Source of the DNA: Phycisphaerae bacterium
Lineage (GTDB): Bacteria; Planctomycetota; Phycisphaerae; FEN-1346
Reading direction: 5' to 3'
DNA: 64,000 nucleotides
Assembly: GCA_035527275.1 (NCBI GenBank)
Contig: DATLBA010000122.1
Span: 19,764 to 83,763 of the forward strand
In this document: piece after piece, positions 147-37,569 of the stretch
How the letters are laid out: every line of letters starts with the position of its first letter
Position numbering within the stretch: position 1 is the stretch's first letter
The notes under the pieces: generated by a model
The model's database searches: none
What the model saw: the letters and a program-made list of their open reading frames with translations, nothing else
Told to the model about the DNA's origin: nothing
Translations under genes and position numbers: made by a program

Positions 147-479
147 ATGACCGGAACGAGCAGCCGTAAGCAACTCTGGTGTGGACGCTGCGGGCGGGTG
201 GTCAAGGTCGGCGCCGAGGCCCTCGAAGTCCTGTGCCCGTGGTGTCTGGTGGATGGAGCGGCGGGGGCGAAGGATGAGAAGGAACCCATCCGAACCTGTC
301 CGGACTGTGAGGACGTGCCGCTCGGCCGGGGCGAAAGATGCTGTCGGACCTGCCGGTTGAAGCGGCGGCGAAAGACTCAAAACCGGTCCGGACGCAAGCG
401 GGCCGAAAAGCCCACGCGAATAAGGCCGTTTGCAGCCTCATGTGAAGGCTCTTTGGCTTATGCACACGACAAACGATAG
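147..479 (+). CDS. hypothetical zinc-ribbon protein (four CxxC pairs)
   Basis: ORF 66..479, with ATG at 147 preceded by GGGAAGGA. Cysteine pairs CGRC, CPWC, CPDC and CRTC are present. Confidence 0.35.
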   Translation: MTGTSSRKQLWCGRCGRVVKVGAEALEVLCPWCLVDGAAGAKDEKEPIRTCPDCEDVPLGRGERCCRTCRLKRRRKTQNRSGRKRAEKPTRIRPFAASCEGSLAYAHDKR

Positions 480-915
480 CAAACCGGGGCCACGGCCCCA
501 GGGGCGGATTAACTGTAGCGCGCGTCGCTCCTGCGCAAACGTGGAAGTAGCGCTGGCACAGGACGAGGTTCTTGTGGATGTGCCAATTTCCGTATTGCAA
601 TCTGATCCCGATGTTGCCAAGCGACTGAGGGGCGAAGTGGTTATATCGGGCCGAGTGCCTGAACATGCCCCGCGCACCCCGGCGTCTGCAAGCCTTCTGC
701 CTGACGGTACGCTTCGCATTTACGATGGAACGCATCGCATAGCCGGTGGGATCGTTCGCGGGGAATCGACATACCCAGTCAAAGTGCGGCTTGCCGCACC
801 ACGGGAAGATTACCCTGCCTCAGTTCTCGCCGACTACCCGGACCTTGCGCGGGTCGCCGCCGAGTGCGACGACTGCATGGGCCTCCCCGTTCCACTCCCA
901 AAGGAGAAGCCATGA
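460..915 (+). CDS. ParB/sulfiredoxin-like nuclease-domain protein
   Basis: ORF 430..915. VDVPISVL followed by a YDGTHRIAGG motif resembles the ParB N-terminal domain. The start is uncertain: ATG at 460 or GTG at 541. Confidence 0.4.
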   Translation: MHTTNDSKPGPRPQGRINCSARRSCANVEVALAQDEVLVDVPISVLQSDPDVAKRLRGEVVISGRVPEHAPRTPASASLLPDGTLRIYDGTHRIAGGIVRGESTYPVKVRLAAPREDYPASVLADYPDLARVAAECDDCMGLPVPLPKEKP

Positions 916-1571
916 AAGACCGAGTGCCAATCGGACCGCTCACCTGCCTTTGGATCCGCTCCGGGCGTCCGCCGTGGCTGGTCTTGATCCTGGCATTACT
1001 CGCTCTCGTTGCTGCGGTGGTCTTTGCTTTTGTTTCTGGCTGTGAGCGCGAGGCGGAGGGGTCCGAACACGAAATGTTGCGGGGTGGTGTAAGGGTAACA
1101 CACCGGGTTCATTCCCCGGAAGCCGCCGGTTCGACTCCGGCCCCCGCTACCATTTTCGTGCCCCCCCCTGCCCCGTTCTGGCGCGCGACGATTCATCACA
1201 CCGGGACGCCGCCGGAGAATCCGGCCACCCGCGTCCGCTCCATCGACGCCGACCACCGCTCGCGCAAATGGGACGGCATCGGCTACCATCTTCTGGTCGC
1301 CGAGGACGGCGGGGTCTATTTCGGCCGGCCGCTCTCGCACCAAGGGGCGCACGTCCTTCACGAGAACGAGGGGAACCTCGGGATCGCATTGATCGGGAAC
1401 TACTCGGACCACACCCCGCCCGAAGCGGCGCTTGCCTCCGTCCGGCGGCTCCTGGCCTGGGCGTTCGAGACGTGGGGCTTTGGGCCGGAGGCGGTCTATT
1501 TTCACAAGGAACTTGCGGCGACGGCGTGTCCGGGTGCGTGGGACAAGGCAAAACTTGGAAAGGAAAAATGA
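912..1571 (+). CDS. N-acetylmuramoyl-L-alanine amidase (PGRP/amidase_2, T7-lysozyme-like), probable endolysin, with a lipoprotein-type signal peptide if the 912 start is real
   Basis: Residues from IHHTGTPP to ACPGAWDK align with the T7 lysozyme / amidase_2 fold. A strong RBS (AAGGAGAAGCC) sits before ATG 912. The N-terminus (WLVLILALLALVAAVVFAFVSGC) looks like a signal peptide with a lipobox. The ORF reads in frame through the tRNA-like sequence at 1078..1152, so an alternative start at GTG 1158 (no clear RBS) is possible. Confidence 0.5.
   Translation: MKDRVPIGPLTCLWIRSGRPPWLVLILALLALVAAVVFAFVSGCEREAEGSEHEMLRGGVRVTHRVHSPEAAGSTPAPATIFVPPPAPFWRATIHHTGTPPENPATRVRSIDADHRSRKWDGIGYHLLVAEDGGVYFGRPLSHQGAHVLHENEGNLGIALIGNYSDHTPPEAALASVRRLLAWAFETWGFGPEAVYFHKELAATACPGAWDKAKLGKEK
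1078..1152 (+). tRNA. tRNA-Met (anticodon CAT), initiator (fMet)-like
   Basis: A 75-nt cloverleaf is present. The acceptor stem is TGCGGGG/CCCCGCT with a 1:72 mismatch, A73 and 3'-CCA. The D-arm is GTGT-AAGGGTA-ACAC. The anticodon stem CCGGG/CCCGG carries three G:C pairs, the loop is TTCATTC and the anticodon is CAT. The T-arm is GCCGG-TTCGACT-CCGGC. The 5' and 3' ends resemble E. coli tRNA-fMet (CGCGGGGTGG...GGTTCAAATCCGGCCCCCGCAACCA). Position 37 is U, which is atypical. Confidence 0.65.
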
Positions 1572-1572
1572 A

Positions 1573-2088
1573 ATGGCGGAGCGACGAGTCGTCAAGGTGA
1601 AGGACAGGAAGGGCAAGATTGAGGTCGCCTACGAGTTGGAGCGGACCGGCGATGATCCGGACCAAGTGACGGTGAGGTGCGGCGATGCGCCGCACCCGGA
1701 GTTCCGCAAAGCGCTCGATGATCTGCGGCCGCACGTCGCCGAGATCTGTGAACTGTCGAAGGCCTGGAGCCAAAATCTGGACATCTGCGGCGTCTCGCTT
1801 TCCTACGCCGAGGACGCCAACGGCGACCCGGTGCTGGGCGCGACGATCACGGCAATGAAACCTCTGGGCGCAAGTCACGGTCCGTTGGTCATCAATACGC
1901 CGCACAAACCCGAGCGGCCGTATTCCGGCCAGGGCGACGACAGCGAAGAATTCTGTCTGTCGGGCGAGTGCGCCGAAGTCCTCGAGGAGGTGATCCGCCA
2001 GGCCCTCGCCTACGTTGATGGCCGGCGTGCCCAGGGCATGTTCGGTTTTGCGGCAGAAGAACCCGAAGCGGTCGGCGCGAAAGGCTGA
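1573..2088 (+). CDS. hypothetical phage protein
   Basis: ORF 1432..2088. ATG at 1573 follows GGAAAGGAAAAA and sits next to the amidase stop. Confidence 0.45.
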   Translation: MAERRVVKVKDRKGKIEVAYELERTGDDPDQVTVRCGDAPHPEFRKALDDLRPHVAEICELSKAWSQNLDICGVSLSYAEDANGDPVLGATITAMKPLGASHGPLVINTPHKPERPYSGQGDDSEEFCLSGECAEVLEEVIRQALAYVDGRRAQGMFGFAAEEPEAVGAKG

Positions 2089-3558: not shown

Positions 3559-5196
3559 ATGGCGAAAAGAAAGAAGGTGAAGGTGCAGAAACCGAGGGTG
3601 ACGACGGAATCGTTTCTCCTCGAGGAGGTTTCCGTTGCGGCGATCAAGCCCGACGGAAACCACCGGGAGGACGTCGGCGACATCAAGGCCCTGGCCGAGT
3701 CGATCCGCCGGCAAGGGCTCCTGCAACCCGTCGTCGTGTTCAGGCGCGACGTGCGGGAACACGTGGCCTCTTACATTCTCGCGGCCGGACAGCGGCGCCT
3801 GGCGGCCGTCAAGCGGCTCGGCTGGCTGCGGATTCCGGCGCGGGTGTTTCCTGCCGCGAGTGCCGAGGTCCGAACGGCCGTCTCGGCCATCGAGAATCTC
3901 GACCGCCGGGATCTCACCCCGGTCGAGGAGGCGCTGGCCGTGGCGCGGTTGGCCGAACACCTTGGCGTCAAGCCGAAAGACCTCGAGCGCGGGGCCGGCG
4001 ACTCCGCGGCCCTCGAGAAAGCGGCCGCGATGCTCGGCCGTAGCGTGCCGTGGGTGCGCCAGCGCGGGGCCCTTCTCCGTTTGTGTCCGGGGGTCCGCGC
4101 CCTCGTGGCAGCCGGCCGGCTGCCGCTCGCGCAGGCGCGGGAGATCGCGAAACTGGCCTCGGCGAGCATACAGTCCGACGTCGCCGGCGGGGCGATCAGA
4201 GAATACCATAGGGATCCCCGCAGCGTCGCGAAGGAAGATCCGGCCAACAGCGACGTCCACGTGGATAGTGTGAGGATCGTCCGAGCGGCGGTCGCCGAGA
4301 TGCTCGACACGCTTCGCGGCGTGCCCTGGAAGGCGGACGTTGCGTTTGCTGGACGCCCGGCTTGCGGCCCTTGCCCCGACAACTCGGCGAACAGTCTCCT
4401 CTTTGGACTGGACCCGGCGGACACGACGGACCCGGCGCCCGAGGCCCGGTGTCTCAACGCGACATGCTACCGGCGAAAGATGGTCGCGGCCGAGGAGGCG
4501 CTTGCCGTGACGGCGAAGAAGTTGGCGAAGGAGAAGGGCGTCAGGGCGACGGTCGCGGGCGTCCGCGATCGGTCGCCGGATTGTCTGAAGCCGGCGAAGG
4601 TGGCGCGGGAACTCGAGCGGGCGCGGGGAACAAAATCAAAACAGAAGGGCGGCCAGGACAGCCGGGAAAAAGTGTCAGTCCCGTGGGACAAGCAACCAGA
4701 GGGAAAACTTTACGCGGCCGAGGATAAGTGGACGAGGACGTGCAAGCAGTTGATCGCGAAGGCCCTCACGGCCAAGCCCTTCGGAGTCGCTTGTCTCTTT
4801 ACGGCAATCGAGACGACGACCTGGTGCCGGCACATCTCGTGGGGCCCACCGAAGAAAGAGGCCTTGGCGAAGGTGCGGCCGCTCCTGAAGCACGTCGCGT
4901 CGGGCCAGGCGGCGGACTTGACGGCCTTGCTCGCTGACGTGAACGCCGAGCGGATCTTTGATGGCGGTGGTGGTAGTTGGGGCTTTTGGGCGACCCGCCA
5001 CTTGGGCGGGCTCCTGAATGTGGACCTGCCCGCTGAACCGAAACTCGAGGACTTCCTGCCGAAGCCGAAAGCGGCGAAGCCGGAGCCAGCGAAGCCGAAG
5101 GCCGCGAAGCCCGAAACGAAAAAGGCCGCGAAGCCGAAGGCGAAAAAGGGCCGGGGCGCGCTCGTTCGCGCCAGGCTTCGAGGGCGCAAGGCGTGA
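3559..5196 (+). CDS. ParB-like N-terminal-domain protein with a C-terminal Lys/Pro/Ala-repeat tail
   Basis: ATG 3559 after AAAGGAAAGGGG. IKPDGNHREDVGDIKALAESIRRQGLLQPVVV...YILAAGQRRLAA is the ParB N-terminal motif region. The C-terminus carries KPKAAKPEPAKPKAAKPETKKAAKPKAKK repeats. Confidence 0.65.
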   Translation: MAKRKKVKVQKPRVTTESFLLEEVSVAAIKPDGNHREDVGDIKALAESIRRQGLLQPVVVFRRDVREHVASYILAAGQRRLAAVKRLGWLRIPARVFPAASAEVRTAVSAIENLDRRDLTPVEEALAVARLAEHLGVKPKDLERGAGDSAALEKAAAMLGRSVPWVRQRGALLRLCPGVRALVAAGRLPLAQAREIAKLASASIQSDVAGGAIREYHRDPRSVAKEDPANSDVHVDSVRIVRAAVAEMLDTLRGVPWKADVAFAGRPACGPCPDNSANSLLFGLDPADTTDPAPEARCLNATCYRRKMVAAEEALAVTAKKLAKEKGVRATVAGVRDRSPDCLKPAKVARELERARGTKSKQKGGQDSREKVSVPWDKQPEGKLYAAEDKWTRTCKQLIAKALTAKPFGVACLFTAIETTTWCRHISWGPPKKEALAKVRPLLKHVASGQAADLTALLADVNAERIFDGGGGSWGFWATRHLGGLLNVDLPAEPKLEDFLPKPKAAKPEPAKPKAAKPETKKAAKPKAKKGRGALVRARLRGRKA

Positions 5197-5212
5197 ACGT
5201 TTAGGGAGTGAG

Positions 5213-6118
5213 ATGGCGAGCAAACCGGCAAAACTCGGCGGCATCGTTCCCTGGGCCGGGGCGAAGCGGACCCTCGCGCCACTCATCGTTCAGGAACTCG
5301 GCCGTCATCTTTGCTACCACGAGCCGTTCTGCGGTTCGATGGCAGTGCTCCTCGCCAAGCCGCCCGTCCACATGGAGGCCGTGAATGACCTGCATGGCGA
5401 TCTCATCAACCTCGCCAGGGTGCTCCAGGACGAACGTCGGGGTCCGAAACTCTACCGACGACTCCGGCGGACCTTCTTCGCGGAGGAGTTGTTTGAGAAG
5501 TCGGCCGACTGGATGCGGATGGTGGCACCGTGCACCATCGCGGACAAACCGGATGCTAGACGGGCCTACCACTACTGGGTGGTCTCGTGGATGGGACGCA
5601 ACGGCGTCGCGGGCACGCCCGCCTACAACCGAAACTTTTGCGCCCGGTTCACCTACGGGGGCGGGAATCCGGCAGTCCGATTCTCGAACGCGGTCGCCTG
5701 CATCCCGGCTTGGCGACGTCGCCTGAGGCGCGTGGCGATCTATCGCATGGACGCCTTCGATTACTTGGATCGGATCGCCGACGAGCAGGGCACGGTCATC
5801 TATGCGGATCCGCCCTACTTCTCGAAGGGGTTCCTCTACGTCCACGACTTCGATGATGCGGCCCACGAGCGGCTGGCAGAGGCTCTCGGGCGCTTCCGCA
5901 AGACGCGGGTAGTCGTCTCCTACTATGAGCACCCGCGGCTTGAGAAACTTTACGCCGGATGGACGCGGCGGAGCCTAGCCTGCCCGAAAAGGCTGGGCCT
6001 TGCCGCTGGCCGAGGGAGTCGGGGCCCAAGCAACGCTCCGGAACTACTCCTTATCAACGGACCGAGTTTCGCGGCGGCCGACGACGCGCCGCTATTCGCT
6101 CAGCAGGGGGCCTCGTGA
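5213..6118 (+). CDS. dam: DNA adenine methyltransferase (Dam-family, N6-adenine)
   Basis: N-terminal PWAGAKR and the catalytic DPPY motif (VIYADPPYF) are present. ATG 5213 after GGGAG. Confidence 0.75.
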   Translation: MASKPAKLGGIVPWAGAKRTLAPLIVQELGRHLCYHEPFCGSMAVLLAKPPVHMEAVNDLHGDLINLARVLQDERRGPKLYRRLRRTFFAEELFEKSADWMRMVAPCTIADKPDARRAYHYWVVSWMGRNGVAGTPAYNRNFCARFTYGGGNPAVRFSNAVACIPAWRRRLRRVAIYRMDAFDYLDRIADEQGTVIYADPPYFSKGFLYVHDFDDAAHERLAEALGRFRKTRVVVSYYEHPRLEKLYAGWTRRSLACPKRLGLAAGRGSRGPSNAPELLLINGPSFAAADDAPLFAQQGAS

Positions 6119-11617: not shown

Positions 11618-13015
11618 GTGGGAAAACGCAAACCGCCGCGGAAATTGCCCCGGGCTCCCCACAAAAAGGGTTCTGTGGGGGATACGAAAAAGGGTTCCGG
11701 GGCTCTGGTGAAGGCGGCGGGCGGGCTGGTGGTCGAGCGGGTGCGGGTTGAAGATCTGTTGCTCGATCCCGCGAACGTCCGGCTGCACGACGAGCGGAAT
11801 CTTGCGGCTCTGGTCGCCAGCCTGAAGCGGTTCGGGCAGCAGAAGCCCATCGTCGTGGACGCCCATGGCATCATCGTCGCCGGGAACGCCACGCTGGACG
11901 CGGCCCGGCGGCTGGGCTGGACGCACCTGGACGTCGTGCGGACGGGGCTGGAGGGGGCGGAGCGAATGGCCTACGGGATCGCTGACAACCGGCTCGCCGA
12001 ACTCGCCACATGGGACGACCAGGCGCTGGCGGACCTGCTGGAGGCTTTGCGGGCCGAGGACGAGTCGTTGCCCGGAGATGCGGGGTTCCTCGAGGAGGAC
12101 CTGGCGGTGCTCCTGGCCGGGAACGTGAAAGAGGGGGAGACGGACCCGGATGCCGTGCCGGAAGCGCCGAAGAAGGCGGTGAGCAAGCGGAGCGAGGTGT
12201 ATCTCCTCGGAGAGCACCGGCTGATGTGTGGGGATTCGACAAAGACGGAGGATGTGGGGCGGCTGATGGGGGCGGAAACAGCAGAAACGCTTTTTACATC
12301 TCCCCCGTATTGGACAGGTAAGGACTATGACAAAGCGTGTGGTTCGCAGGGGGTTGTCCGTTTTATGGATCGGTTCGCTAACACGTGGACCAACGTGATA
12401 AATAGACGCATTATAATAGAAAGTTTCTTCACCACAAATCAAAAAACAATCGGTGATGGGGGACCGATGCGTAAGGTTTTGCTTTGTGCCATGTGGCAGA
12501 AAGCAATGGAAGATCACGGTTGGCTGTTACGTCACCTGCGCTGGTGGTTGAAGCAGGGAACCTTGCCACATACGACACCCGTAAGCGATATGGTGGACGA
12601 GTCCTGCGAAGGCCTTTTCGTCTTTTATCGCCCAGGCCACAACGAGGGCGGGATGGAGCGCGTTGGAGAAGAATGGGTTTGTCGCGGATATTGGGACGAT
12701 GTGCCCGGCAGGCACGATCAAGAACATCCGGCCGTGTTTCCCGTGGAGATTCCGAGTCGCATGATTCGACTTTATTCGCGGCCCGGAGCCATCATCGCAG
12801 AGCCTTTTTCCGGTTCCGGCACGACCATCATCGCCGCCGAGCAGTTGGGACGGCGGTGTTTCGGTATGGAAATTGAGCCGCGGTACGTGGACGTGGCGCG
12901 ACGGCGGTGGGCCGAGTTCGTCCACGGCGAAGGATGCGCCTGGCAAGCGTTGACGCCCAAGGAAGGCGACGCGAAACCCCGGCGCCGACCGGGCCGGAAG
13001 AAAGGCGGCCGATAG
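11618..13015 (+). CDS. ParB N-terminal domain fused to a DNA (N6-adenine/N4-cytosine) methyltransferase
   Basis: ParB-like region (VEDLLLDPANVRLHDERNLAALVASLKRFGQQKPIVV...GNATLDAARRLG). Methyltransferase motifs FTSPPYW (catalytic motif IV, SPPY) and EPFSGSGTT (SAM-binding motif I). GTG start after GAGGAGGA. Confidence 0.7.
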   Translation: MGKRKPPRKLPRAPHKKGSVGDTKKGSGALVKAAGGLVVERVRVEDLLLDPANVRLHDERNLAALVASLKRFGQQKPIVVDAHGIIVAGNATLDAARRLGWTHLDVVRTGLEGAERMAYGIADNRLAELATWDDQALADLLEALRAEDESLPGDAGFLEEDLAVLLAGNVKEGETDPDAVPEAPKKAVSKRSEVYLLGEHRLMCGDSTKTEDVGRLMGAETAETLFTSPPYWTGKDYDKACGSQGVVRFMDRFANTWTNVINRRIIIESFFTTNQKTIGDGGPMRKVLLCAMWQKAMEDHGWLLRHLRWWLKQGTLPHTTPVSDMVDESCEGLFVFYRPGHNEGGMERVGEEWVCRGYWDDVPGRHDQEHPAVFPVEIPSRMIRLYSRPGAIIAEPFSGSGTTIIAAEQLGRRCFGMEIEPRYVDVARRRWAEFVHGEGCAWQALTPKEGDAKPRRRPGRKKGGR

Positions 13016-24746: not shown

Positions 24747-26585
24747 ATGACGATGCCTATGGTCATCTCGTTCTACACGCCCGACAACGAATACGCGGAG
24801 TGGGCGAAGACTCTCCGCGCCTCGTGCGAGAAGTTCGGGCTGGATCACGAAATCAACGAGGTGGACCTCTCGCGTGTGGGTTCGTGGCATGCGCGCGCGG
24901 CCCATAAAGGCGTGTATATGTTCGAGGCGGCCAAGCGACACGATCCCCGGCCCGTTCTCTGGCTCGACGCCGATTCCGAGATCGTCGGACCGCTGGATAT
25001 GTTCGACGATCCGCCGTTCGATTTCGCCGTCTCGCATCCGCACAACGACCGCGTGCGGACCGGGACGATTTACGCGAACCCTGCCGCGCGGCGTCTGCTC
25101 AGGATCACGGCGGCATTTTGCAAGGCCCATCCCGGGAAGGCCCACGAACGGAATCTTCAGGCGGCCATGCGTCTCGTCAGGATACCGGCGCATCGGAGCA
25201 TCCGGGTCCATTTCCTGGACTATGGGTACAACTACGTCCCGAACTGGCCGACGCCGGCGCAATGGAACGGAAGGATCTTCATTCTCTCGAACCACGTCTC
25301 GGGATGCGGGTATCTCAGATCCACGCAGCGAGACGGAGGGCCGAAGGGCATGGGCAGGCGGCTCAAACTCAAGACGCTCGTGACTTCTTTCTGGTCCGAC
25401 CAGGAGGGCACGTTCTACAAGCAGGCCGCGCGGACGCTCCAGAAAAGGTGCGGTGCCCTCGGCATCGAATACGACATCCGGCCGCGACCGCCGGGTGCCA
25501 ATTGGATCCGCAACTGCGACATGAAGCCGAGTCACATCCTGGAGGTCCTCGAACAGCGCAAGCGGCCGGTCCTGTGGATCGATGCCGATAGCGATCTTAT
25601 AAGCGTGCCGACGGCCGTGGACGCCCTCGATTGCGATGTGGCCGCGGTGCCGTTCGAGGGATCCCCGCGGAACGATCCGCCGCTTCGCGTTCGGGCATTC
25701 GTGCTCTATTTCAATTACACGCCGGCGGCCCTGGATTTCGTGAGGTCCTGGAAGGCCAAGTGCGACTCTTCGACGAGCGAGGACATCTCGGACCACCAGT
25801 ACCTCGAGCGGACCTGGCGGGAGTTCGAGGCGGCGCGGCCGGACTGCCGATTCGCCCACCTGCCGGAGACCTACGCCGGCACGCGGAAAACGGCGGGCAG
25901 CGTCATCCTTTACGGGGCCGGGCATGGGGCAAGCCGCACGGAGGTGTGTCAGCGCTACTCGAAACGGGCCCTGCGGCTGACGAGCGATAAGGTGTTCGGA
26001 TACTTCAGCCGCGCTCAGCGGGCCTTTTACGACCGCATGGTGGCCGAGGCGCCGGACCCGGCCGTCTTTATCGAGGTGGGGTGTCTGCTCGGAAAATCGA
26101 CGATCTACCTGGCCCAGGCGATCCAGGCCGTGCGTAGTTATGCCGGTAGTCCAGGAACCGGCAAGTTCATTCAGATTCATGCCGTCGATTGGTTCAAGGG
26201 GAGCGACGAGCCGGCCTTCCGGACCGAGCCGGCCCTCCAGGGCATAGACTTCAAGACGGAGTTCTTGCGGAATATCATGTCGGCAAACGTCCATAAAGTA
26301 GTTCGTACTCATACCGGCGAATCGACCGCCGTCGCCCGGACGTTCGCGCCGGCGAGCGCCGACATGGTTTTCATCGACGGATCGCACGACTACGAATCGG
26401 TCAAGCGGGACATCCTGGCGTGGCGATCGGTGGTGAAGCCGGGCGGCGTGCTGGCGGGCGACGACTACCATTCCCCCCGATGGGCCAGCGTCGTAAAGGC
26501 CGTGGACGAACTCCTGCCCGGCCGGAAGATCGAGGGGACGATCTGGACGTGGAAAGTGCCCGCGAAGGAAGAGGTTCCGGCATGA
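24747..26585 (+). CDS. multidomain protein: two tandem nucleotide-sugar glycosyltransferase-like domains (DxD-type) plus a C-terminal class I SAM-dependent methyltransferase
   Basis: Paired domains (VISFYTPDNEYAEWAKTL...VLWLDADSEIVGPLD and LVTSFWSDQEGTFYKQAARTL...VLWIDADSDLISVP). The C-terminus carries FIEVGCLLGKST...VFIDGSHDYESVKRD...GGVLAGDDY. RBS GAGGAG. Confidence 0.5.
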   Translation: MTMPMVISFYTPDNEYAEWAKTLRASCEKFGLDHEINEVDLSRVGSWHARAAHKGVYMFEAAKRHDPRPVLWLDADSEIVGPLDMFDDPPFDFAVSHPHNDRVRTGTIYANPAARRLLRITAAFCKAHPGKAHERNLQAAMRLVRIPAHRSIRVHFLDYGYNYVPNWPTPAQWNGRIFILSNHVSGCGYLRSTQRDGGPKGMGRRLKLKTLVTSFWSDQEGTFYKQAARTLQKRCGALGIEYDIRPRPPGANWIRNCDMKPSHILEVLEQRKRPVLWIDADSDLISVPTAVDALDCDVAAVPFEGSPRNDPPLRVRAFVLYFNYTPAALDFVRSWKAKCDSSTSEDISDHQYLERTWREFEAARPDCRFAHLPETYAGTRKTAGSVILYGAGHGASRTEVCQRYSKRALRLTSDKVFGYFSRAQRAFYDRMVAEAPDPAVFIEVGCLLGKSTIYLAQAIQAVRSYAGSPGTGKFIQIHAVDWFKGSDEPAFRTEPALQGIDFKTEFLRNIMSANVHKVVRTHTGESTAVARTFAPASADMVFIDGSHDYESVKRDILAWRSVVKPGGVLAGDDYHSPRWASVVKAVDELLPGRKIEGTIWTWKVPAKEEVPA

Positions 26586-35180: not shown

Positions 35181-35755
35181 AAATCGACTGGATTACCGTC
35201 GTGAAGTGTCGCTACGCACGGGACTGGGGCAACCCGGTTCTGGACAAGTGGCTCAACGCCCTGGCGGCGATGGGGGCGGTGGTCCGTGCGAGCAGCGTGG
35301 CTCCGCGCGTGGACTTGATGCGCAACCGCGAGGTTGGACGGTGGCTCGCGGAGGATGCAACCCGCTATCTGCTGATGGTGGATTCGGATATGGTTCCGCT
35401 GCCTGAGACCAACGCCCTGTTGGTTGAGGCGGGCGACGCGCTTTGGTGTCCCTATGTGGACCAGGCGGGCAAGGTGATAGACGCGCAGAAGAACGGTGTC
35501 GGGACGGGATGTATGAGGATTTCACGCGGCTTGGCGGAAGCGATACCGGAACCGCGATTCGAGTATACTCTGGATACATCTGGTCGGAAGGTCGAAAAGA
35601 GCGAGGCCTTCACTTTCACGCAGAAAGTGGCGGCGGCGGGCTTCGCATTCCGCGCCGTCGGGCGAGCGGGACACCTGATGCGGCTGGTAGCCTTGCCGCC
35701 GGGGCCGGGGCACACGGCGGTCGAATGGAAATTCGAGTGGGAGTTTTGGGGCTAG
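35177..35755 (+). CDS. hypothetical protein between the inverted repeats (possible DxD-type glycosyltransferase-like or fiber-assembly protein)
   Basis: ATGA overlap with the fiber stop. Contains LLMVDSDM. The functional call is weak. Confidence 0.35.
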   Translation: MKIDWITVVKCRYARDWGNPVLDKWLNALAAMGAVVRASSVAPRVDLMRNREVGRWLAEDATRYLLMVDSDMVPLPETNALLVEAGDALWCPYVDQAGKVIDAQKNGVGTGCMRISRGLAEAIPEPRFEYTLDTSGRKVEKSEAFTFTQKVAAAGFAFRAVGRAGHLMRLVALPPGPGHTAVEWKFEWEFWG

Positions 35756-36342
35756 GGCGACGAGAACGTCGCTACTTCAACCCATTTAACCGCACCATCG
35801 CCGTGGTCGAACATAAGCACGTAATCTTTAGTTGCGGGATTCGCCGGTGCCGCAACCAATTTCCAAGCCTTGTCTATGGTCTGGTCCCAGACGAGCATCT
35901 GCCCGTCCGCCGTGCCGTCCGCCAGCCCCACACCATCAGCATCTACTTTGACCGCGGCCGCCGCGTCCACCTTGACGCGCACTCCGTTGGCATCAACATC
36001 TATGCCCTTATCCTGGTTGGCGAGGATCGCCAGACCATCATCGTCGATCATGATGCCGCTGATCAGCATATTCGTGTGAACGCCGAGTTCCCCGTCCGGC
36101 GTGAAGATCACGCCCTTGCGGCTGCCGGCGGCTGGCACACGGACATAGAGGCCGTCAGCATCAACCCCCATGGCTCGTGTTGTGTCCGGCTTGGCTTCGA
36201 ATTTGCCGCCCGCCTCGTTCACCAACCGAAATTTCCGCGCCTCCACGACCTCTGCCGCTGGCGGCGTTCCGCCGCACGCCACCGCCATGACGGCCAACGG
36301 AAGCACCAACAACACAGTGATGAATCGAGTTGATCTCTTCAT
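35752..36342 (-). CDS. lipoprotein whose C-terminal domain is homologous to the tail-fiber C-terminus
   Basis: Lipobox signal peptide MKRSTRFITVLLVLPLAVMAVAC. RBS GGGAGA. The C-terminal region (YVRVPAAGSRKGVIFTPDGELGVHTNM...GIMIDDDGLAILANQDKGIDVD) parallels the fiber C-terminus (HVRVPAAGSRKGVIFTPDGELGAHVNM...GIMVDDDGLAILVNQDKGISVD). Confidence 0.55.
   Translation of the reverse strand: MKRSTRFITVLLVLPLAVMAVACGGTPPAAEVVEARKFRLVNEAGGKFEAKPDTTRAMGVDADGLYVRVPAAGSRKGVIFTPDGELGVHTNMLISGIMIDDDGLAILANQDKGIDVDANGVRVKVDAAAAVKVDADGVGLADGTADGQMLVWDQTIDKAWKLVAAPANPATKDYVLMFDHGDGAVKWVEVATFSSP
36081..36144 (-). repeat. right copy of the 64-bp inverted repeat, inside the lipoprotein CDS
   Basis: See 34836..34899. 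Confidence 0.7.
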
Positions 36343-36533
36343 GGCATGTCTCCCAATTTGGCAATAGGAGTATAGCACAGAAACGGAAGGCTGTCAAGAA
36401 ACTTGTCGTGGCGGACGGGCGCGTGAAGCCGTGCGGCGAATGTAAGAAGGGCAGGACAGGACAAGGCGGTCCGGCCACAACTCTTTATCCCATCAAGGCT
36501 TACGGACAATAATAAAAAAATCGGGATTTTTTT

Positions 36534-36562
36534 CTTGACTCCTGCCGGCGAAGCGCCGATAC
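36534..36562 (+). promoter_or_regulatory. sigma70-like promoter TTGACT-17-GATACT, preceded by an AT-rich near-palindrome (AAAAAAATCGGGATTTTTTT)
   Basis: A good -35/-10 match with 17-bp spacing, about 150 nt upstream of gene 36710. The AT-rich island is unusual in this GC-rich genome. Confidence 0.4.
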
Positions 36563-36709
36563 TACCGGCAGAGGTGGAGATGAAAATCCCAATAAACGAA
36601 AACGCGAAACGAGGGCCGGCCAGGGGCGACGGCATCTTCACGCTCGTCTCCACCTCTAAACCTGGCCGGCCTTCATTGCGCGAAGGGCGAAAGAAAAGAG
36701 GGGTGGATC

Positions 36710-36928
36710 ATGGACAAGCCGCAGTATGTGACCACGCAGCGGACGGGCAAAGGCGTAAAGTTGGCGATCCTGATAAGCGGCCTCGGCATGTTGTTTTCCC
36801 TCGGCGGAGCGGGGGCGTCGGTCTTGGCCGAGTCGGGGAAGGGGATCGTTCTTTCCATTCTGGCGTTCGTGGCCTGCGCTGGGGCGCTTTTGGCGGCGAA
36901 GATCGTCCGGTGGTGGCGCTATGAATAG
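36710..36928 (+). CDS. small membrane protein (2 TM helices)
   Basis: RBS GAGGGGTGGA. Hydrophobic segments. Confidence 0.45.
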   Translation: MDKPQYVTTQRTGKGVKLAILISGLGMLFSLGGAGASVLAESGKGIVLSILAFVACAGALLAAKIVRWWRYE

Positions 36929-37241
36929 CGGCGAAGGGAATTCGGATCGCCCCCCGGTCGACGCCGAAGAGACCGTGCGGACGTGCAAAATCTACCTTGC
37001 TCGGGCGGGCGAATGGCGCTGGCGGCTGTTGATAAACGACTCCTATGTCGTGGCCGAAAGCGACGAGAGCCATGTGAGCGGCTACGCGGCCAGACAGAAT
37101 TTTTTGCAATTCGTTGCGGCATGGTGGGCCATCTCGGACATCGCCCAGATCGCGATCCAGTTTTGCCTGACGGGCGGCGGAGCGGGGCCTCTCATGAGTA
37201 TTCATGTCGTTCAGGATGTCACCGATGGTGTTGAGGACTGA
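36921..37241 (+). CDS. DUF1508 (YegP-like) domain protein
   Basis: CKIYLARAGEWRWRLLINDSYVVAESDESHVSGYAARQNFLQFV matches the YegP/DUF1508 pattern. Confidence 0.6.
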   Translation: MNSGEGNSDRPPVDAEETVRTCKIYLARAGEWRWRLLINDSYVVAESDESHVSGYAARQNFLQFVAAWWAISDIAQIAIQFCLTGGGAGPLMSIHVVQDVTDGVED

Positions 37242-37569
37242 GATGGCGCGACGGAAAACCGTGAAAACTCGGCCGCAAAACCTTCCGGTGCGCATCGCGC
37301 CAAACTTCATTTCGAGTTATCTTGATGCTCCCATTATACATATTATGTTGCGCTGGGGAGCGCTTGCGGAGTCCACGCGGTCCTTGCGGCCGTTGTTGTG
37401 GTCGGGCCATGGAGGGGGCCGAAAAAGTGCTAATGGTTCGGGAACACGACGCGCAGCCTCCACGACGTTGAAGAGGATGGTTTCGCACGGTGGCGCGCGA
37501 AGTCCGGTGGCCGTTCGGAAGACGCGGCAGGCGCGGGGTTCGAAGAATGCCCCTAACAGGCAGAAGAGG

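Follow-up and report, generated by a model that had tools for sequence, protein, structure and literature searches.

Endolysins of the signal-peptide or signal-anchor-release type, such as Lyz of phage P1, R21 of phage 21 and Lys44 of the Oenococcus phage fOg44, are exported muralytic enzymes. In mitochondria and in some Escherichia coli operons, polycistronic transcripts are cleaved by RNase P at the tRNAs they contain, an arrangement called tRNA punctuation. Structured repeats of Rickettsia, the palindromic elements attributed to Ogata et al. in 2000, are reportedly inserted in frame into open reading frames (ORFs). Phages generally avoid encoding the initiator tRNA, tRNA-fMet, which is cleaved by VapC, and anticodon-loop changes in phage tRNAs have been proposed to permit escape from nucleases of the VapC, PrrC and colicin type (van den Berg et al. 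2023, eLife, PMC10264068). Phage tRNAs and exported endolysins are thus both already known, separately from each other. Here we analyse a 64,000-nucleotide (nt) stretch of DNA from a Phycisphaerae bacterium (contig DATLBA010000122.1; hereafter the window), in which an initiator-type tRNA-Met gene lies in frame inside the endolysin gene of a tailed prophage. We give an even chance to the proposal that this is a nested gene with two uses, in which the same DNA provides both a tRNA and lysin coding sequence.

The argument turns on the following features of the window.

912..1571, + strand: full-length endolysin ORF of 219 residues, made up of a signal with a transmembrane (TM) helix and lipobox-like motif, a linker and an Amidase_2 domain; recognized by its open frame, ribosome-binding site and gene calls.
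900..1061, + strand: mobile module of ribosome-binding site (AAAGGAGAAG) and signal peptide, comprising ATG 912 and codons 1–50; it recurs in another phage locus, L004.
972..1043, + strand: hydrophobic helix (residues 21–42) ending in a lipobox-like FVSGC, with the codon of Cys44 at 1041..1043; from the translation and the AlphaFold2 model.
1078..1152, + strand: tRNA-Met gene (CAT), initiator-type; from ARAGORN, Rfam and blastn matches in E. coli.
1158..1160, + strand: GTG start of the 137-residue product (P0001/P0021) in the JGI and NCBI annotations, probably not the native start.
1185..1535, + strand: Amidase_2 or PGRP-type N-acetylmuramoyl-L-alanine amidase domain; from Pfam PF01510, PHROG and PDB matches.

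The tRNA is the only one that ARAGORN reports in the whole window (tRNA-Met, cat, 1078..1152, + strand), and the Rfam model RF00005 matches 1078..1149 over its full length (positions 1–71 of 71) with 57.2 bits (E = 1e-9), the gathering score being 29. Both programs accept this copy despite its unusual U37, and they agree with the preliminary description, drawn from the letters alone, which had claimed a complete tRNA-Met cloverleaf at this place. The features listed in that description can likewise all be read from the sequence and its covariance-model (CM) alignment: an acceptor stem GCGGGG/CCCCGC (G2–G7:C66–C71) with a U1:U72 mismatch, A73 followed by an encoded CCA, the anticodon CAU, the anticodon stem CCGGG/CCCGG (G29–G31:C39–C41) and the T arm GCCGG-TTCGACT-CCGGC. 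The D arm is GUGU-AAGGGUA-ACAC, and the anticodon loop UUCAUUC places U37 and C38 after the CAU. The conserved tertiary positions (U8, A14, G18 G19, U33, T54 U55 C56, A58 and G53:C61) are all kept.

Formylation of bacterial initiator tRNAs depends on an unpaired 1:72, on G2:C71 and C3:G70 and on A73, while the D stem carries A11:U24 in bacterial initiators and Y11:R24 in elongators. All formylation-type determinants (1:72 mismatch, G2:C71, C3:G70, A73) are present in the window tRNA, as are, in the CM alignment, the three consecutive G:C pairs 29–31:39–41 that are a hallmark of initiators; its D stem, GUGU/ACAC, gives U11:A24 instead of A11:U24. Judged from these positions, it is an initiator-type tRNA by most determinants that fails one. 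When searched by blastn against 5,426 E. coli genomes, it matches a median of 4 places per genome, and the best match lies within three tandem tRNA-Met genes beside mltA, which we take, from the K-12 map, to be the metZWV initiator operon. It is identical to this mltA-side copy at positions 2–7 and 66–71, in A73-CCA and in the three G:C pairs of the anticodon stem, and departs from it by U1:U72 in place of C1:A72, U11:A24 in place of A11:U24, and U37 C38 in place of A37 A38, the loop of E. coli tRNA-fMet being CUCAUAA. An initiator-type identity with an odd U37, as first proposed, is thus upheld by the class of the best E. coli matches and by the loop itself, in which U37 is read directly.

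The altered loop is not confined to the window. A scan of 185,579 species genomes for the anticodon arm recovered tRNA-Met genes that combine UUCAUUC, a 1:72 mismatch and GGG:CCC in Muribaculaceae, and these copies retain A11:U24; a search of IMG/VR for the exact anticodon arm gave zero matches. The tRNA genes concerned are listed here.

L127 5955..6028 and L128 475..548: initiator-like tRNA-Met genes with the UUCAUUC loop in Muribaculaceae, beside terminase, Mu-like protease and amidase genes (prophages).
L129 533..605: initiator-like tRNA-Met gene with the UUCAUUC loop in a metagenome-assembled genome (MAG) of Flavobacteriales, in a cluster of 7 tRNAs that includes a tca ('SeC'/suppressor-like) tRNA.

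Because the same loop recurs in unrelated prophage tRNA-Met genes, the oddities of the window tRNA look like those of a functional variant and not like decay. By analogy with the phage tRNAs cited above, it is plausible that the U37/C38 loop allows escape from anticodon-loop nucleases of the VapC kind. The initiator tRNA of the window, whose altered loop recurs among Bacteroidota prophages, would thereby become a further candidate for counter-defence by phages against such nucleases.

The same DNA lies within the reading frame of the lysin. Read as codons, the tRNA gives codons 56–81, producing LRGGVRVTHRVHSPEAAGSTPAPATI, and occupies 25 codons of the linker; the ORF (864/912..1571) stays open through it without a stop codon, so that, as the preliminary description had it, the tRNA stands in frame between a signal segment and the amidase domain. 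Strong initiation at 912, also claimed there, is borne out by AAAGGAGAAG, a strong ribosome-binding site directly before ATG 912. In contrast, GTG 1158 is preceded by ccgctaccattttc, which contains no ribosome-binding site. Purine-rich ribosome-binding sites are found before most genes of this phage. A start at 1158 would leave 8 residues before the conserved domain, without an export signal. Gene callers that do not mask tRNAs give the 219-residue protein (P0022).

The first part of the ORF has a counterpart elsewhere, with which it shares 92.8% identity (900..1061 versus L004 801..966), the L004 copy heading a lysin with a 3D domain (P0019). The homology has sharp bounds, from the ribosome-binding site to codon ~51, and the differences amount to 5 synonymous changes, one L-to-F replacement and one in-frame 3-nt indel patch. 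Read from this alignment, the pattern is that of a functional coding module and shows that the segment is under coding constraint. In the window no stop codon closes the module, and the downstream sequence must therefore be its cargo. Lysins with unrelated catalytic domains, Amidase_2 in the window and the 3D domain in L004, have this 160-nt module in common. The amidase is preceded by at least four different N-terminal modules, which meet it just upstream of the tRNA, or of the relic in its place, and this suggests a recombination junction at this point.

Lipoprotein signal peptides combine a positive n-region, a hydrophobic h-region and a lipobox, [LVI][ASTVI][GAS]C. The product of the 912 start shows K2, R4, R16 and R19, the helix 21–42 and VSGC with Cys44. 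AlphaFold2 predicts a TM helix at 21–42 (pLDDT ~88–90), disorder at 44–84 and an amidase fold from 91, and all the tRNA-encoded residues, 56–81, fall within the predicted disordered linker. Among close amidase homologs (60–80% identity) that are complete or nearly so, 17 out of 17 have an export signal followed by a variable linker, the signal being either Tat-like (MNRRTSILAIVGAGLAARRA...) or a TM helix ending in Cys; their boxes are less canonical (IRSC, AHGC, VRGC), and the Cys that follows the TM helix occupies the corresponding position. A product starting at 1158 would be the sole family member without a signal. From these features, the lysin is probably exported and perhaps lipid-anchored through Cys44.

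The catalytic part conforms to what had been claimed for it, namely an amidase_2 domain from about 1185: the PF01510 match (E = 1.3e-16) covers residues 92–208 of the product starting at 912, PHROG assigns it to endolysin/amidase, and the PDB matches comprise PGRPs and T7 lysozyme (1lba). The zinc-ligand positions H95/H96, H198 and C206 are invariant in an alignment of 18 family sequences. Just upstream of the amidase domain, several relatives carry tandem heptamers, (CCTCAAG/CAAGCCT)n (L013 ~2467, L017 ~2465, L018 ~2382, L019 ~964, L131 ~2414), which encode a recurring SLKPQA motif and in some cases have inverted copies that form long hairpins. With a repeat unit of 7 nt, a change in copy number shifts the reading frame in the lysin linker; the signal part of L017 and its amidase are in different frames, and a 1-nt frameshift is present in L019. 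Slipped-strand phase variation of lysin export could account for these shifts, as could assembly noise.

An open frame through a tRNA is not significant alone. Two of the three frames of the window tRNA are free of stop codons, the region has about 64–67% G+C, and by our own estimate an in-frame passage would arise by chance with a probability of ~0.2. Chance ORFs over tRNAs are indeed known in GC-rich phages. In Mesorhizobium phage vB_MseS-P1 (L134, PP232116.1), ARAGORN finds a tRNA-Met at 2000..2074 inside a coding sequence that is labelled 'transcriptional repressor' and lacks Pfam support. Sequences resembling initiator tRNAs are found as well in ~5–6-kb single-stranded DNA phage records (H1, H2 and H6; bajarodino viruses and Inovirus sp.), under 'hypothetical protein' or unannotated. 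These cases, L134 and the three small phages, are probably annotation artefacts or attachment (att) sites. Accordingly, one may suppose that the window tRNA merely separates a dead or independent upstream ORF from a lysin initiated at GTG 1158, the continuous frame being a by-product of G+C content. The tRNA-masking pipelines do call the 137-residue P0001 and P0021, the G+C content at third codon positions (GC3) of 912..1077 is only 0.65, and a signal-less lysin could work given that a holin-like gene is present in the phage. We nevertheless judge this arrangement unlikely in view of the ribosome-binding site, strong at 912 and absent at 1158, the coding-type substitutions and in-frame indel in the signal module, the lack of a stop codon belonging to the upstream ORF, the export signal in every complete homolog, and the existence of a circular form of the phage, which is thus probably active as it stands. 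A further point against it is the conservation of frame and codon phase through linker elements of six different lengths, and it is these comparative data, rather than the open frame alone, that give the in-frame arrangement its significance.

The comparison rests on about 15 close relatives, obtained by amidase-based scans of metagenome and viral contigs and none of them with a tRNA that ARAGORN or Rfam calls, whose linkers were aligned on anchors by hand and script; a MAFFT alignment of the linkers was uninformative. Eight related lineages have tRNA-derived relics at the same position of the linker, and in the relatives of the TM+Cys type the site is flanked by a common E-x-E stretch and a common CCATTT(T)C. 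In the linker of L009, GTCGCTG and CAGCGAC form a perfectly matched acceptor stem of 7 bp, GCGU-UGAGGGAA-ACGC forms a D arm, and GCCGG-TTCGATT-CCGGC a canonical T arm, whose stem is that of the window tRNA; the 3' end reads T-CCA, and ~65 nt of other hairpins stand where the anticodon arm would be. Within 621 kb of fetched loci, both strands included, the L009 linker is the only place outside called tRNAs where GGTTCGANTCC is found. The T arm is decayed by degrees in L016, L019, L017, L015 and L131 (GTCGGAATCGACTCCGGC, GGTCGGATAGATCCGGCC, GCGGAGCGATTCCGC, GCCGAACTCCGGC and AACTCCGAC); in all five the remnant is followed by CAGYCGC-CCATTT, homologous to CCCCGCT-ACCATTTT of the window, and the complementary GCGGCTG lies 63–150 nt upstream. 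The acceptor 5' strand begins at the second codon base in 8/8 lineages scored (the window, L009, L016, L019, L017, L015, L131 and L018), L001 being left out of this count as the script had matched an unrelated, earlier GCGGCTG. The relics measure 63, 90, 117, 129, 147 and 150 nt, each length being divisible by three, and in the gene frame they are free of stop codons. In L132 the linker is contiguous and the element absent. The linker elements of the relatives are relics of tRNA origin and not tRNAs. A profile search with the N-terminal and linker parts returned no new proteins, and a scan of IMG/VR for T arm, acceptor and CCATT gave 119+ ordinary tRNAs, with 0 followed by an amidase.

Some relics may still be constrained in structure. 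Delimited by hand, they fold into closed multi-branch structures with z-scores of -2.3 to -3.1 relative to shuffled sequences, a result biased by the choice of ends for complementarity. In the acceptor stem, 4 of the 7 pairs differ on both sides between lineages while remaining paired; 94% of cells pair, versus 73% in shuffles, and 0/500 shuffles reach the observed value, in a test of five distinct sequences with stems chosen by eye. Such double-sided differences would fit selection on the stem. A dispersed, MITE-like repeat was also considered as the nature of the element and rejected, as no further copies of the element ends were found beyond the lysin linkers in the window or in 259 loci.

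These data favour read-through translation from ATG 912 over a start at GTG 1158, a choice we regard as well supported because the ribosome-binding site is found only at 912, the signal module shows coding constraint, the homologs have export signals and the relics keep the phase. The preliminary description had put the matter as a choice between a phage initiator tRNA followed by a lysin starting at GTG 1158 and a tRNA-like sequence translated as a linker; the translated linker is favoured and the 1158 start disfavoured, while the supposed exclusion of one by the other does not hold. It had also proposed that the tRNA be doubted if tRNA finders rejected it and homologous lysins held the segment as ordinary coding sequence without tRNA-like covariation. 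Homologous lysins do carry the segment as plain codons; the window copy, on the other hand, passes the tRNA finders, and compensatory differences between lineages are seen in the acceptor stem. In the JGI and NCBI annotations, the lysins of these Planctomycetota phages would consequently be mis-annotated, the tRNA being masked and the lysin truncated to a signal-less form.

Several observations weigh against the two uses that we propose. Four features of the sequence are atypical (U37, C38, the elongator-like U11:A24 and probably A15:C48), Cys44 fits the lipobox core pattern but stands later than usual, and tRNA-masking annotation starts the lysin at 1158. Neither a sigma-70-like promoter nor a terminator was found adjoining 1078..1152, and the tRNA could therefore mature only from an mRNA. 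The tRNA is identical in all contig copies of the phage, with no polymorphism and no within-lineage covariation. ARAGORN finds no tRNA in the linkers of L009, L016, L019, L017, L015, L131 and L001, and Rfam (E <= 1 to 10) gives no tRNA match in the relatives' linkers, with only T-arm-sized matches to tmRNA models in L009; since the relics are rejected by tRNA finders, the lysin can evidently do without tRNA function. The window copy may have been re-acquired recently, or may simply be undecayed so far, and the double-sided differences of the acceptor stem would fit replacement by different tRNAs equally well.

Alternatively, 912..1571 could be the real lysin and its linker a translated relic of tRNA origin that has not yet decayed, from which a working tRNA is no longer, or never was, matured. 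This possibility, which we think somewhat improbable, draws on the decay or expansion of the same segment to plain coding sequence in eight related lineages, on the rejection of all the relatives' copies by ARAGORN and Rfam, on U37, C38, U11:A24 and U1:U72 in the window tRNA, on its lack of a promoter of its own, and on its minimum free energy z-score of only -0.82. It is harder to reconcile with 57.2 bits and the presence of all conserved tertiary positions, or with the occurrence of the same odd loop in other prophage tRNA-Met genes. Moreover, the tRNA segment makes poor codons: on a codon adaptation index-like scale it reaches 0.375, which places it among the lowest 0.9% of 26-codon windows from the phage's own genes, whose median is 0.72, and GC3 is 0.54 here and 0.80 in the amidase domain. 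The poor codons argue for a sequence that is either held by a pressure other than translation or very recent. Poor codon adaptation together with preservation at 57 bits indicates that the segment is more than a mere linker and that both uses are probable.

In the proposed gene with two uses, the endolysin would be the full 219-residue product, with a membrane- or lipoprotein-type export signal, a disordered linker of ~45 residues and the Amidase_2 domain, and ribosomes would read through the tRNA segment to produce the linker sequence given above. The arrangement would be old: a tRNA joined the linker-coding DNA, most lineages let it decay or expand, always keeping the frame, and in this phage it stayed intact. 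A share of the transcripts of the lysin region would be cut by RNase P and 3' processing enzymes, releasing a tRNA that would serve in initiation and whose U37/C38 loop may evade anticodon-loop nucleases of the VapC kind; we infer this expression, maturation and use from the sequence. Since RNase P processing cuts the lysin message, the tRNA and lysin uses would compete for each transcript. One could go further and regard the embedded fold as a regulatory device, in which processing by RNase P and 3' enzymes competes with ribosomes and each transcript yields either a nuclease-resistant initiator tRNA or an exported lysin. Lysis would then be timed according to the cell's translational state, and the device would explain why the acceptor-like stem has stayed paired, by compensatory differences, in relatives whose inner parts were replaced; we consider it quite improbable.

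Genes for tRNAs and for proteins are normally treated as mutually exclusive. The comparative data indicate that tRNA sequence has served several phage lineages as translated linker, and that one of them retains the tRNA intact. Should both uses hold, a phage would here encode a tRNA and a protein on the same strand of the same DNA, a clear case of dual coding and also an example of a tRNA gene exapted into protein sequence. In our literature searches we found no precedent for a tRNA gene lying within a phage ORF or lysin gene, nor for tRNA relics as protein linkers.

The tRNA belongs to the phage and not to its host. Window positions 1..~37358 are a tailed prophage of Phycisphaerae type with a genome of ~37.46 kb, encoding a ParB-like protein, methylases, a large terminase, a lambda-type portal, a major capsid protein, a tape-measure protein and fibres; after its right end follow the host genes for PilM, a type II secretion system (T2SS) ATPase and threonyl-tRNA synthetase (ThrRS). 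The annotated records of relatives come from Phycisphaerae MAGs, which makes a host within Planctomycetota probable. Two further features concern the ends of the prophage.

37336..37358, + strand: attR core ATACATATTATGTTGCGCTGGGG (23 nt) at the right end of the prophage; the same 23-mer occurs at attL and attP.
36710..36928 (= L007 1096..1314), + strand: candidate holin or pinholin of 72 residues, with two hydrophobic helices and a charged C-terminus; proposed from its architecture only.

The attL core is at L005 1722..1744, that is, 100–122 nt left of window position 1, and the attP core at L007 1722..1744 and also in L258. An identical lysin region is found on integrated contigs with host ABC transporter and ribosomal protein S21 genes on the left, and on a 37,445-nt contig of the circular (attP) form, in which window 35615..37358 is joined to window 1 onward. 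Both forms are present in metagenomes, with identical copies on at least 13 contig records (two look-ups), some of which may be re-assemblies of the same samples. Since tRNA genes serve many temperate phages as integration sites, the position of this tRNA close to the left prophage end might mark it as an attachment site or a host border tRNA left as an integration scar. This is refuted by the mapping of attL, attP and attR, which share ATACATATTATGTTGCGCTGGGG: the left core is ~1.18 kb from the tRNA, which lies inside the phage, and the circular form keeps the tRNA and both flanks unchanged, so that an integration scar is practically excluded. The earlier claim of a phage-borne tRNA is therefore confirmed by these mapped sequences.

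Among the ORFs scanned, none had a Pfam integrase match. The candidate holin lies ~1.3 kb upstream of the lysin in the circular genome, with the att site between them when the phage is integrated, and the two genes are adjacent only in the circular genome. Immediately before the lysin, an ORF of 161 residues (430..915, + strand) has a stop codon that overlaps ATG 912 (ATGA); it has a GC3 of 0.59, is not called by JGI and is a doubtful gene, and its overlap is consequently not used as support for the 912 start. Between 541 and 811, the GC3 signal agrees better with the opposite strand, on which there is an ORF at 202..735 (- strand). The prophage also encodes at least three proteins of DNA methyltransferase type (5018..6118, 11618..13015 and 24747..26585; D12-class N6-adenine, N6_N4_Mtase and Methyltransf_24).

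Several known systems resemble this locus in part. As in exported endolysins, the muralytic enzyme of the window has an N-terminal hydrophobic export signal, and a small holin-like gene with two TM helices is nearby. Unlike theirs, its signal ends in a lipobox-like Cys, and its relatives swap Tat-like and TM+Cys signals; a tRNA gene inside a lysin gene likewise sets it apart, no such report having been found in our literature searches. The window tRNA is like the phage tRNAs discussed by van den Berg et al. (PMC10264068) in being phage-borne, with an anticodon loop off the host-type consensus, and in belonging, as an initiator tRNA, to a known class of VapC substrates; unlike the tRNA array of Streptomyces phage FlowerPower, it is single and lies inside a protein-coding gene. 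The nearest analogue that we can name is the Rickettsia palindromic elements, with which the insert shares paired ends in structured DNA, an in-frame position in a tolerant linker, translation, variable length and absence from one relative (L132). It differs from them in consisting of a tRNA gene or its relics, with no other copies in the window or in the fetched loci. Finally, as in tRNA punctuation, a tRNA embedded in the lysin mRNA would be a target of RNase P and of 3' processing, and cleavage would cut the message; whereas punctuating tRNAs stand between cistrons, that of the window lies inside a single one, where any given molecule would be either processed or translated.

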